Assembly (NCBI GenBank): GCA_951406725.2
Contig: OX597817.1
Location: 166,904,001-166,968,000 of the forward strand
Direction: 5' to 3'
Source: Octopus vulgaris
Lineage: Eukaryota
DNA: 64,000 nucleotides
Each line of letters starts with the position of its first letter. Within the stretch, counting starts at the first letter, position 1. The position numbers were made by a program, and so were the translations under genes. This document shows positions 189 to 51,194 of the stretch, one piece after another. The notes beneath the pieces are model-generated. The model was given only the letters and a program-made list of their open reading frames with translations, searched no databases and was not told where the DNA came from.

Positions 189-640
189 AGAAAAATATTA
201 TTCATGTGGTTATACAATTAAGGGCTCCTAAATAAAGATGCCGAGTGCTGGGAACACAGAGATTTGAAAAGTTAAGATCTGCTAGTAGTCGGGTTTAACA
301 TATAGCCCCACATCGCTGCAGACCTCGATTAAATTCAGGCGACTCGCTGATGAAGCCAGCCTTAGCAAACATATTCTGTGTTTTGCTAGAAAGAAGCAGA
401 AACCGCGGTACGAGTTGTTAAAGTTATCGGTAAACGTTTTTGATTTTCACTCTCGATAAATTCATCCCCTTTTTGTGTTCCCAGCACTCGGCATCTTTAT
501 TTAGGAGCCCTTAATTGTATAACCACATGAATAATATTTTTCTATATGAATAATATTTTTCTATATGAATAATATTTTTGTCTTATGACTAATTCGTCTT
601 TTGTGCTGGGCACCTGGTAGTAAATAATATTACTACCCTT
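189..640 (+). mobile_element. Penelope pLTR-like/retrozyme-like remnant (family A) with ~70-bp inverted repeat and a hammerhead
   Basis: Inverted repeat ~189-258 vs ~474-543; follows (TA)n; hammerhead motif at 341-416. Confidence 0.6.
341..416 (+). ncRNA. Minimal type-I hammerhead ribozyme (family A)
   Basis: gactcg CTGATGA [stem II tagcaaa/tttgcta] GAAA C CGCG GTA cgagtt; A-A mismatch at the base of stem II. Confidence 0.7.
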
Positions 641-750
641 AACGGCCATAATAGGCCATTCACCCACTAGAAATAACAGCCAAAGCTTCAACCGCAAATA
701 AAAGTTAATTCTGTAAACCAGGAGAAAATTTTAAAAACATTTACCCTGTA

Positions 751-857
751 ATTTCTTATACGATATACCGTTTCATCTGCTGATTAATGGTAAACTAACC
801 TGATTAAATTAAATCAAGCCAATCTTCCACAGGCCCTCAGATTCCTCAGTAAGAAAT
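751..857 (-). ncRNA. Hammerhead ribozyme (family B, inverted copy)
   Basis: Reverse complement of 1311-1417. Confidence 0.85.
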
Positions 858-1310
858 AGCCCAAGTCGGAACAGATATTTTCACGAGGCATTTCCGACCT
901 TGCCAAGTTTATATCTGACCTAAAATTTTCAAATCGTCGCACTCGCGCCAAATTTATCGGCAGCAAATAAATATAAGCCGTCGATTCCATTACGGAATTA
1001 ACCAGAAAATTCATAATTAATCAATATAGGGTGGCAAAAAAAAAAATTTTGTAGAATTCTTTTGCCACCAGCGGCCTAGTAGGAAAAAATTAAATAGTCA
1101 TAGACCATTTTTAAGTTCAACATCATTTTTTTGCCACCCTATATTGATTCATTATGAATTTTCTGGTTAATTCCGTAATGGAATCGACGGCTTATATTTA
1201 TTTGCTGCCGATAAATTTGGCGCGAGTGCGACGATTTGAAAATTTTAGGTCAGATATAAACTTGGCAAGGTCGGAAATGCCTCGTGAAAATATCTGTTCC
1301 GACTTGGGCT

Positions 1311-1417
1311 ATTTCTTACTGAGGAATCTGAGGGCCTGTGGAAGATTGGCTTGATTTAATTTAATCAGGTTAGTTTACCATTAATCAGCAGATGAAACGG
1401 TATATCGTATAAGAAAT
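1311..1417 (+). ncRNA. Hammerhead ribozyme (family B)
   Basis: atttctta CTGAGGA atctg...cagat GAAA CGGTATATCG TA taagaaat; predicted cleavage after GUA (1409). Confidence 0.85.
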
Positions 1418-2099
1418 TACAGGGTAAATGTTTTTAAAATTTTCTCCTGGTTTACAGAATTAACTTTTATTTGCGGTTGAAGCTTTGGCTGTTATTTCTA
1501 GTGGGTGAATGGCCTATTATGGCCGTTCCTTGATTGTTTGATGTTGAACTTAAAAATGGTCTATGACTATTTAATTTTTTCCTACTAGGCCGCTGGTGGC
1601 AAAAGAATTCTACAAAATTTTTTTTTTGCCACCCTATATTGATTAATTATATATATATATATATATATATATATACATACATACATACATACATACATAA
1701 ATACATACATACATACATACATACATACATACATACATACATACATACATAGATACATACATACATACATACATACATACATACATACATACACATGTGA
1801 TAAGTTCATTCTATACACTGATCTGTAAATGTGTTTGAATGGGGATGTGTTACATGCATGGAATAAGTGCACCTACGAATGGAATCATACAAACAAATAT
1901 TATTATATCATATTTGCAAGCATGCTAGGGTGAGTGCATACATACATGTATGAGTATCGGTATGCATGTCAGTTTTTATATTCTTTGAAATATTCCTCGA
2001 TAGATGTGGCTGATTTCAAAGTGAAACTACAAAGACAGGAGAATAGAATTCTGATAAAAGCAACTGTAAAGTGTTACATGCTAAGATTTAGAAATGTTT

Positions 2100-49899: not shown

Positions 49900-50285
49900 T
49901 GACTTAAAATTGTATGATAGATTGCCGTCATTTCATTCTCTCTTACCTGTCTGTGTTTGCCTTTCAAGTGCTGTGTTTTTACTGAGATCTCCCTTTTAGT
50001 AGAAAGAATAGCTATAACTCTTTGACTGCTATTTCTAAATTCGGTGTGTGGTGAGGCAATTCGTTGCTAAACCCTTAATTACTTAGTATTACTTAAACTT
50101 TCCTCGAATGAGGCTTTTACATGCCGAGATCTACTTGGTGTAATTAATGATTATTCCAAATTAATTATATATATATATATATATATATATATATATATAT
50201 ATATATATATATGCAATATACACATGCACATATATATGTTTACTCTTTTTCCTTTTGTTTTTCCTCTTCCTTCTTTCTTCTACAG

Positions 50286-50528
50286 GTAACGGCACCATAG
50301 AATTCAACGAGTTTCTCGAAATGATGATGAAGTGTAAATCGGAAACAAACGAGCGGCAAGAAGTAACAGACGCCTTCAAAGTGTTCGACACGAACAAGGA
50401 TGGTTTCATTAATGCTTCTGAGTTACGTCACGTCATGATGAACTTAGGCGAAAAACTCACCGATAAAGAGGTGGAGGATATGATCAGAGAAGCCGACGCA
50501 GACGGTGACGGCCGAATAGACTATGAAG
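50286..50528 (+). CDS. Calmodulin-like gene, coding exon (rest of EF2, EF3, EF4)
   Basis: Long pyrimidine tract + tacag acceptor, 243 bp, gtaaag donor; [14 protein letters not shown]...[47 protein letters not shown]; phase 1 joins in frame with 4517-4660. Confidence 0.95.
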
Positions 50529-50810
50529 GTAAAGCGAGTTCGAATTAGGCAGTAGGTAGTGAATGAGATGTTATGGGTATCGCTGTTATTTGTATTGCGT
50601 TCTTTTACTTGTTTTAGTCATTAGACTACGGCCATGCTGGGACACCACTTTGAAGAATGTTTTTGTCAAATGCATCGAGTCCAGTACTTCTTTTTTAAGC
50701 CTGGTTTATTTTTTAAGCCTGGCATAGGTTTGTGCTTCTAAAAATCTTACACACACACACACCTATATATATATATTTAAAAAAGATGTGGAACACAAGT
50801 TGTGATATAT

Positions 50811-50926
50811 AAAAAAGGAAATGAAGAAAATGCTGACAAAATAATTTAAGTAATTTAAGTAATTACTTAAATTACTTAAATTACTTAAATTATTTTATTT
50901 TGTCAGCATTTTCTTCATTTCCTTTT
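50811..50926. repeat. Fold-back palindrome with internal (taatttaag)n
   Basis: aaaaggaaatgaagaaaatgctgacaaaata ... tattttgtcagcattttcttcatttcctttt. Confidence 0.85.
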
Positions 50927-50986
50927 ATATATATATATATATATATATATATATATATATATATATATATATATATATATATATAT

Positions 50987-51194
50987 TGTGACCGTGTGTG
51001 CACCGTTGGCGATATTTTTCCTCCGTCTTCCCTTCTTTGGATCTTTCCTTTTCCTATGTTTCTGACGAAGAGCTCCGCTCGAAACATTAAACGCTCCTTC
51101 TTTCCTTCTTTCCTGAGTGTCCAATAATACTACACTTGTTCCACGTCCTCGCGTTGTTGTGTTTTCTCTTTGTGTTTTCATGTTTGGATTAACT
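50987..51194 (+). mobile_element. Solo Penelope-type terminus (family D) with a mutated hammerhead at 51058-51092
   Basis: gttt CTGACGA a gagc tcc gctc GAAAC ATT aaac; inserted in (TA)n. Confidence 0.75.

Follow-up and report, generated by a model that had tools for sequence, protein, structure and literature searches.

Type I hammerhead motifs of high-copy repeats lie in both orientations within introns of a calmodulin-like Octopus vulgaris gene that is spliced

The window analyzed here comprises 64,000 nucleotides of Octopus vulgaris contig OX597817.1 (positions 166,904,001 to 166,968,000) and carries coding exons of a calmodulin-like host gene, whose third exon is matched exactly by the protein P0055 (149 aa, neo-calmodulin-like, Octopus sinensis). 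The gene is laid out as follows, in window positions except for exon 2.

G000:C4:166873751-166873781: coding exon 2, 30.25 kb upstream of the window
4517..4660, plus strand: coding exon 3, exact P0055 match with AG/GT ends
4661..50285, plus strand: intron 3, 45,625 bases, carrying most of the motifs; flanking exons joined in contigs of 4/4 runs
50286..50528, plus strand: coding exon 4, an EF-hand pair (Pfam EF-hand), covered by one long contig per run
51775..51803, plus strand: last coding exon up to the stop codon, located by tblastn with P0055

The initial annotation had proposed that about ten sense-strand hammerhead motifs reside in or near the introns of one gene whose pre-mRNA they might cut while it is being spliced. 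Expression and splicing of the gene are confirmed, as exons are joined by contigs across the 45.6 kb intron in all four runs; the junction of exon 4 with the last exon was seen in three of the four, among the rows listed for contigs of RNA type. The runs were not recorded as RNA and their type was guessed; it is the exon-joined contigs that show spliced transcripts. They stem from other individuals, which possibly lack the young inserts of the window, and the high read depth over 51007-51186 sums all copies of one repeat family (D, below) and is uninformative for that locus. Intronic placement also holds for 11 of the 11 motifs, since exon 2 lies far enough upstream to put the cores at 347 and 1319 in intron 2; the core at 51062 occupies the last intron.

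Each of the 11 motifs proved to contain a CTGAnGA core no more than 11 bases from its assigned position, with the helix III segment that had been named for it. Copies on the minus strand had been missed.

347, 1319, 21297, 32370, 39807, 46024, 46969, 48649, 49232, 49815, 51062, plus strand: cores of the 11 motifs
849, ~14790, 19079, 34086, 39362, ~47200, 48406, minus strand: copies missed earlier, inside the gene
56273, minus strand: copy missed earlier, beyond the stop codon

A strict type I descriptor gave 10 matches in the window (6 plus, 4 minus) and none in each of 30 dinucleotide shuffles. Four minus-strand motifs and 6 of the 11 listed ones thus show the circular order of CUGAnGA, GAAA and NUH together with all three helices and an opening at helix I; ten working motifs were not confirmed. 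The remaining five fail for individual reasons: helix II lacks its closing pair at 347 and has two pairs at 32370, helix I has three pairs at 46024 and none at 46969, and the 15.2-16.2 pair is lost at 51062. Nor do 11 motifs represent 11 inserts; they belong to nine insertions, three of the motifs forming one tandem array. Flanking by (TA)n holds for ten motifs, which have a (TA)5 run within 515 bases, and does not for 32370 (nearest run at 646). An Rfam search returned 118 matches at E up to 1 with low-complexity microRNA matches only and the hammerhead model absent, likely because a long helix II and a short helix III fall outside the models. A scan for one rearranged order of the core recovered four window matches, all known motifs of family B, against 0-3 in 20 shuffles, and nothing new.

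The sense-only pattern did not survive the second strand. Within the gene, 12 copies are sense and 7 antisense (p=0.36). The control set, 120 of 160 planned stretches, covers 1.19 Mb taken from other introns; there 24 of 59 copies are sense, as are 5 of 16 intact ones. A sense-strand excess was therefore rejected, absence of an orientation bias being among the refuting outcomes named in the initial annotation, and the pattern is a reading artefact. The density of intact motifs is 193 per Mb in the window and 13 per Mb in control introns, a 14-fold excess for which local clustering is the only explanation we have. Half of the intact control motifs (8/16) are themselves packed into 89 kb close to the end of a contig.

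Six families, A-F, are distinguished here, in agreement with the earlier suggestion of several. First-look candidates numbered 1012 to 2939 each for A, B, C, D and E and 134 for F (these are not copy numbers). A (TA)5 run lies within 300 bases at 26-29 of 30 loci for A, B, D and E, 19 of 20 for C and 18 of 30 for F, compared with 31% of random 600-base intron windows (loci in arrays overlap). All six are dispersed repeats, which separates them from a single-copy domestication of the CPEB3 kind. For families A, B, C and E the best full-length matches across the genome share 95-100% identity, and no sign of domestication was seen. Three of the families consist of tandem units, and inserts frequently bear an inverted copy at the 5' side.

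190..545, plus strand: family A insert, a partial 445-bp unit and a short inverted arm; core 347, helix III CCGCGG, helix II open
641..1648, both strands: family B insert, divergent twins; cores 849 (minus) and 1319 (plus), arms 100% identical over 317 bases
39037..40026, both strands: family B insert, divergent twins; cores 39362 (minus) and 39807 (plus), arms matching at 99.7% over 328 bases, with (TA)n at either end
48132..50165, both strands: family E insert; inverted arm 48132-48435 (core 48406, minus), then three 583-bp units
48649, 49232, 49815, plus strand: family E sense cores

Units of 445 bp (A), ~484 bp (B, spacing 483-486) and 583 bp (E) were found in tandem at 26/30, 20/30 and 30/30 loci, respectively. 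These head-to-tail units with one type I hammerhead each have the layout of retrozymes; the coding check concerns E, where the longest stop-free frame over two units is 69 aa, and the core of A is atypical. All 13 distinct variants listed for A lack the helix II closing pair, and A may be a hammerhead variant wrongly failed by the descriptor. The E copies of the window retain an intact core, a GUC site, the G10.1-C11.1 pair and a six-pair helix I, and their helix III region is unchanged in 88 of 91 matches. Cuts are predicted after 48727, 49310 and 49893, the last 392 bases before the intron end. The non-LTR retrozymes of Cervera and de la Pena (2020, PMC7229834) and Li et al. (2026, preprint 10.64898/2026.07.22.740005) are likewise described as tandem non-coding units with one type I hammerhead each, found as monomers, dimers and arrays, also in introns, and derived from Penelope terminal repeats, as the layout of A, B and E would suggest. 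The octopus units (445-583 bp) exceed the 170-400 nt circles of PMC7229834 and fall within the 51-972 bp range of the preprint.

Family C belongs with coding elements.

18950..21426, minus strand: family C element, 5'-truncated, Hydra-clade-like Penelope
19652-20774, minus strand: its endonuclease frame
18950-19460, minus strand: its 3' terminal repeat; core 19079, C3 changed to U
20916-21426, plus strand: its inverted copy; core 21297
45995..46158, plus strand: terminal repeat of family C type, diverged; core 46024 with three helix I pairs
17605..18864, minus strand: truncated Neptune-like Penelope frame, RT end, GIY-YIG E 0.0067 (below cut-off); no linked hammerhead here

We take the last frame to be Neptune-like from its motifs. 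The 511-bp repeat of family C forms inverted arms 98.8% identical in the window, and an inverted copy is present in 8 of 20 loci; the family combines a pseudo-LTR with hammerhead, the inverted layout and 5' truncation. Reverse transcriptase (RT) and C-terminal GIY-YIG frames occur in one element at locus L039 (frames 2182-4757, then the repeat at 4948) and at other loci, the arrangement of an EN+ Penelope. The homologues measure 574-806 aa, and the three that were read all contain RT and GIY-YIG, the Pfam RVT_1 E being only 0.002. Family C displays DKT, CxxC and CxH without CCHH, and (TA)5 adjoins 19/20 loci; these are features of the Hydra clade of Craig et al. (2021, PMC8557442), which is also described with a C-terminal GIY-YIG, a canonical hammerhead, (TA)n targets and an inverted 5'-truncated copy. 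The clade has RWK where L039 has RWL, and the CxCX5C linker, not visible in L039, is present in homologues P0121, P0123 and P0126. The predicted family C fold keeps 91% of cells paired, with double changes at 6 of 17 pairs, a score equalled in 3 of 500 shuffles (nine related rows). The sequence comparisons thus place the family C motif in the terminal repeat of a Hydra-clade-like RT/GIY-YIG Penelope element.

The remaining copies are short or old.

14683..14845, minus strand: family D copy, antisense, core mutated
32331..32471, plus strand: minimal hammerhead of family D with a mismatched helix II; core 32370
33979..34118, minus strand: family D minimal hammerhead; core 34086, intact, antisense
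51022..51169, plus strand: copy of family D, located in the last intron and missing a helix III pair; core 51062
46930..47040, plus strand: old copy of family F with a broken helix I; core 46969
47156..47453, both strands: divergent pair, degenerate, from a further family and related to the 56273 motif
56138..56312, minus strand: type I hammerhead, intact, past the stop codon; core 56273

No consistent coding partner was found within 1.5 kb flanks for A, B, D, E and F: of 30 loci each, Penelope-type frames lie in 4 for B, 2 for E, 5 for D and 2 for F, and in none for A, and they look like neighbours (at L144 the family D copy and a Neptune-like frame have a (TA)n run between them). A Penelope origin of these five families is likely from their layout and the literature. 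The pseudo-LTR hammerheads of Cervera and de la Pena (2014, PMC4209133) share with the octopus motifs the type I core, a short palindromic helix III and a proposed action as dimers, solo copies produced by truncation and opposite-strand pairs 100-700 bp apart; they also include a minimal form with an extra base before G10.1, as in family D. Palindromic helix III, its role in dimers, opposite-strand pairs and (TA)n targets are accordingly already published for such elements. Families B, C and E differ from them in long helix II extensions (~55-70 bases), and that paper does not deal with effects on host introns. The octopus families were not seen among those named there, although its supplementary lists or those of PMC8557442 may name them.

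Helix III is self-complementary in 23 of 25 motifs in a scan without a palindrome requirement. The idea that palindromes act as family-specific keys was nonetheless rejected: CATATG is common to three unrelated families and CG to two. Between families C and E, 7 of 8 helix III pairs agree but no helix I pair does, so it is helix I and not the palindrome that, on these alignments, sorts the families. Cross-family motif pairs are never predicted to form both helices. Apart from E, same-family sense partners lie 18-38 kb apart, and two of three such pairs span different introns. Folding was treated throughout as an equilibrium prediction. The helix III probability of the monomer is ≤0.08 for all 11 motifs, and minimum-energy folds bury 13 of 13 core bases at 1319, at 39807 and in one E copy and 12 of 13 at 21297. 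Two free E copies are predicted to form a double hammerhead with probability 0.75-0.86, 8.2 kcal/mol better than two monomers (0.70 for E units 2-3 at 20 C). The majority of inserts probably do no harm, as the initial annotation had suggested for solo inserts; equating solo with harmless is unsafe, however, since single retrozyme hammerheads cleave (PMC7229834) and family B has a four-pair helix III.

Taken together, we consider it very probable that the motifs are type I hammerheads of high-copy repeats, present in both orientations in introns of a calmodulin-like gene that is spliced, and that all but one cluster of them are predicted to be unable to cut host RNA. The repeats are likely Penelope-like retroelements together with non-coding derivatives of these. 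The ribozyme would serve the RNA of the element itself: two copies, held together by the palindromic helix III and exchanging helix I, would process tandem precursors in the form of a double hammerhead. Of the sense motifs in the host pre-mRNA, five are defective. Opposite-strand pairs are divergent in 24 of 25 cases. Where an insert has an intact sense motif, as four do, its antisense twin would be transcribed first, and because of this order the sense copy would be trapped on emerging, zipping into a 300-500 bp hairpin. The twin would hold one of the three E copies, leaving two free to fold as a double hammerhead that may cut some transcripts 0.4-1.6 kb before the acceptor, which would not prevent spliced mRNA. 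On these models host-RNA cutting is plausible only for the 583-bp trimer.

Whether even the trimer cleaves is the point on which the closest competing explanation differs. According to it no motif cleaves in the host transcript, either because the ribozymes are slow or because an element protein is needed, and we give this a substantial chance, somewhat short of even. Minimal Penelope hammerheads are reported to cleave weakly even as dimers (PMC4209133), the hammerhead of Poseidon required its protein for cleavage, with no RNA-seq reads ending at the site (PMC11167929), one of nine dimers cleaved in the 2026 preprint, and the low monomer probabilities point the same way. Coral and mussel retrozyme hammerheads, on the other hand, are described as cleaving co-transcriptionally as single copies at ~0.8 and ~0.1 per min (PMC7229834), and the intact core and helix I of the E copies in the window, with the largely unchanged helix III region of the family, speak against inactivity.

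Another possibility, which we regard as doubtful, is that unmasked intact sense hammerheads harm splicing and are purged, twins and antisense orientation allowing intact copies to persist. In the window all six intact sense motifs sit in twin-bearing inserts. Counted by insertion, intact motifs of the control introns are 7 antisense-only, 1 sense-only and 3 paired (p=0.07), or 8 versus 1 with the gene of the window added (p=0.04, post hoc), and retrozymes are reported as under-represented in Xenopus introns (preprint 10.64898/2026.07.22.740005). This antisense lean of intact unpaired control motifs is a weak hint of purging. The numbers are small, however, and solo insertions, intact or not, lean alike (11 sense, 22 antisense, p=0.08). 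Hammerhead-free repeats of the same introns are also strand-biased (blast matches 73 vs 132 and 121 vs 84; two further repeats gave 20:32 and 17:19), so the lean may be generic. The E trimer, moreover, persists although it is intact, sense and only partly masked.

Less likely still is an extension in which the twin acts as a safety catch. Outward-pointing twins would trap the ribozyme in any host transcript, so that twin-bearing inserts would be tolerated while unmasked intact sense copies were purged, and an array outnumbering its twin, such as the 583-bp trimer, would cut the pre-mRNA near the acceptor, release a retrozyme monomer and lower calmodulin-like mRNA in carriers. Paper searches, judged by titles and opening lines of abstracts, turned up nothing on a strand bias of intronic retroelement hammerheads or on their masking by twins. 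Least probable is the original proposal that the gene gathers sense hammerheads which cut its pre-mRNA co-transcriptionally, palindromes limiting cleavage to same-family dimers: it draws on the intronic placement in a spliced gene, the lack of cross-family pairs with both helices, the predicted E double hammerhead, a window count of 5 sense to 2 antisense solo insertions and the report that slow intronic ribozymes leave splicing intact (Fong et al. 2009 as cited in PMC10274809), yet a sense excess is lacking in the window (p=0.45 for those solos) and in control introns, all five solo sense motifs fail the descriptor, the palindromes are shared between families and same-family partners beyond E are distant.

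The intronic CPEB3 ribozyme (PMC10274809) is likewise a self-cleaving RNA within a host intron and a potential competitor of splicing; CPEB3 and the amniote intronic hammerheads are described as single conserved loci, unlike the young, multi-copy mobile inserts of the octopus. With the present analysis a known class gains octopus examples, and a strand artefact is set right. One gene offers matched cases, predicted-live in the E trimer and predicted-masked in the B and C inserts with twins, and a cheap natural test of whether the thousands of intronic retroelement hammerheads of animals cut host pre-mRNA, and of what keeps them quiet.

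Matching of the window (G000:C4:166904001-166968000, in a genome of 2.8 Gb) to protein record P0055, a 149-aa Octopus sinensis protein named neo-calmodulin-like, located the following host exons, with 100% identity over the 81-aa query and AG/GT ends at the splice sites:

4517-4660, EF-hand exon
50286-50528, EF-hand exon
51775-51803, last coding exon

The start-codon exon was not located by this matching, while the preceding coding exon (IPKLSSDEIE) was found 30.25 kb upstream of the window. The intronic position of the hammerhead motifs with cores at 347 and 1319, which the initial annotation had made dependent on upstream exons, is therefore confirmed, as both lie within the 34.7 kb intron 2. 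Exons 3 and 4 were joined in contigs from 4/4 public runs (four studies; presumed RNA, from other animals possibly without the young inserts), and exon 4 was joined to the last exon in 3/4 among the contigs listed. Exon 4 position 50365 carries an A-to-G difference at full depth in 2/4 runs, which may be an allele or RNA editing.

All 11 motif cores of the initial annotation were found. A strict descriptor of the type I fold (at least 4 pairs in helix I and at least 3 in helix II, self-complementary helix III, NUH) recovered 10 motifs from the window and none from any of 30 shuffles:

1319, 21297, 39807, 48649, 49232, 49815, plus strand, strict motifs
849, 34086, 39362, 48406, minus strand, strict motifs

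Five of the initially annotated motifs (347, 32370, 46024, 46969 and 51062) fall outside this descriptor. The helix II closing pair is absent from family A (347) in 13/13 distinct variants listed, so that its core is either dead or a variant, and a core variant is possible. Family A (347-410) is a young tandem family with 98-100% identity among best matches. By profile search the window holds 20 hammerhead copies. Within the host gene 12 are sense and 7 antisense (p=0.36), and 1 further antisense copy lies past the stop; insertions divided into 5 with both orientations, 5 sense-only and 2 antisense-only (p=0.45). The motifs are real and of a known kind, and the originally proposed sense-strand-only pattern is mistaken. 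An Rfam search of the window gave no hammerhead match. A CTGATGA inside a hairpin at 25050-25125 (+) belongs to a low-copy repeat with 16 other matches (74-82% over ~70 bases); it is no match for the type I fold and might represent a rearranged hammerhead.

To obtain control introns, 21 gene spans were delimited from exons with Pfam matches on the same strand (myosin head, ion channel, kinesin), and 120 of 160 planned stretches lying between such matches were analysed (1,193,700 bases); these spans are inferred, contain small exons and may hold nested genes. The sense bias named as a check in the initial annotation did not appear: only 5 of 16 intact motifs under the strict descriptor were sense and 11 antisense (0 in 3 shuffles), and the sense strand carried 24 of 59 profile copies (p=0.19) and 19/43 degenerate copies. 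Insertions numbered 11 sense, 22 antisense and 10 both (p=0.08); when only insertions holding an intact motif are counted, these figures become 1, 7 and 3 (p=0.07). Hammerhead-free repeats in these introns are also skewed (73:132, 121:84, 20:32, 17:19, 0:1), so the antisense lean cannot be attributed to cleavage with confidence. The common interspersed repeat with the 73:132 skew forms tandem arrays at 27427-28229 and 37662-38212 (190 and 184 bp units). Intact motifs reach 193 per Mb in the window versus 13 in control introns. Half of the intact control motifs (8/16) fall in a single myosin gene span close to where a contig begins (L211-L218, G000:C15:199901-279900), which suggests that hammerhead-bearing elements are strongly clustered by region.

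First-look candidates in the own genome, counted as lower bounds with 40 scored per family, number at least 1012 (A), at least 1719 (B), at least 1954 (C), at least 2939 (D), at least 2475 (E) and at least 134 (F). The tandem repeat unit measures 445 bp in family A, 483-486 bp in B and 583 bp in E; of 30 loci for each, 16, 17 and 14, respectively, also hold an inverted copy (loci overlap). Family D is a solo minimal hammerhead with a helix III of only CG and an additional base 5' of G10.1, and F is a decayed old family. At 18-29/30 loci (19/20 for C) the match has a (TA)5 no more than 300 bases away, compared with 31% of randomly chosen intron stretches. Inspection of the loci and their flanks linked no coding partner to any of families A, B, D, E and F. 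The family C repeat, 511 bp long, forms the end of a coding element:

20774-19652, minus strand, truncated endonuclease frame running into the repeat at 19460-18950
element's 5' end, inverted copy containing motif 21297

Directly adjoining this element is a 419-aa stop-free frame at 17605-18864 (-) with an RT end and a GIY-YIG domain, which by its motifs we take to be Neptune-like. At locus L039, RT and endonuclease frames (DKT, CxxC and CxH, no CCHH) precede the same terminal repeat. Pfam scores were below cut-off, and the atlas listing gave RT-like clusters. By their motifs, the element and its homologues (protein records P0121, P0123 and P0126) appear to fit the Hydra clade, the description of which in section 11 of PMC8557442 fits the motifs of L039 and of these records. 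Across nine copies of family C type, pairing holds in 91% of cells, with double changes at 6/17 pairs. Elsewhere, intron 3 contains LINE-type RT fragments at 42284-44413 (+) and 11162-12061 (-) (RVT_1 E 3e-31, zf-RVT E 2e-6), a 405-base inverted repeat occupies 56518-56920 and 57196-57595, and two neighbouring PIF1 helicase frames, likely Helitron remnants, run from 58614-60753 (-) onward to ~64000 in a G+C-richer stretch.

A palindrome-blind scan yielded 25 motifs, 23 of them with a self-complementary helix III (1 match in two shuffled sets), and this self-complementarity is a real feature. Excerpts of PMC4209133 already describe palindromic helix III, a dimer model and opposite-strand pairs 100-700 bp apart. 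The palindromes do not, as had been supposed, act as a family key, since CATATG is common to three sequence clusters and CG to two. Between families C and E, 7/8 helix III pairs match and 0 helix I pairs. Because a double hammerhead also exchanges helix I strands, it is helix I and not the palindrome that sets family specificity. Monomer helix III formation has a predicted probability of at most 0.08 for window motifs. Single invertebrate retrozyme hammerheads do cleave (coral ~0.8 per min, mussel ~0.1 per min; PMC7229834, in excerpt), so a solo insert is not necessarily silent, and to equate solo with harmless is not a safe assumption.

Arms of the inverted twins share 97.7-100% identity over 304-511 bases, and opposite-strand pairs are divergent in 24/25 across all loci. 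With twins oriented outward, the antisense arm would be transcribed first, whichever the strand, and an emerging sense copy would be trapped by it. In minimum-energy folds, motifs 1319, 21297, 39807 and one E copy are predicted to have their cores buried. In the E trimer, three 583-bp units with an upstream inverted arm, the arm is predicted to pair with unit 1 when the transcript ends after unit 2 and with unit 3 in the full fold, the arrangements being 8.8 kcal/mol apart. Two E copies would remain free in either arrangement, forming a double hammerhead (predicted probability 0.75-0.86 for units 1-2, 0.70 for units 2-3 at 20 C), with predicted cuts 392 to 1558 bases upstream of the intron end. 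From these folds, a share of the transcripts of the E-trimer allele may be cut at the E sites.

Excerpts of PMC10274809, with reference to Fong et al. 2009, state that an intronic ribozyme blocks splicing if it is fast and leaves it intact if it is slow. Counting against cutting, Penelope hammerheads are described as weakly active (PMC4209133, in excerpt) and protein-dependent (PMC11167929), and 1/9 dimers was active in the consulted part of a 2026 preprint (10.64898/2026.07.22.740005), which also places ~42-44% of Xenopus retrozymes in introns. It is conceivable, if rather unlikely, that twins mask intact intronic hammerheads while unmasked sense ones are purged; the titles and abstract openings returned by literature searches contained no report on this idea or on the E trimer. 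The E trimer provides a test case, and the remaining interest lies also in such masking and purging.
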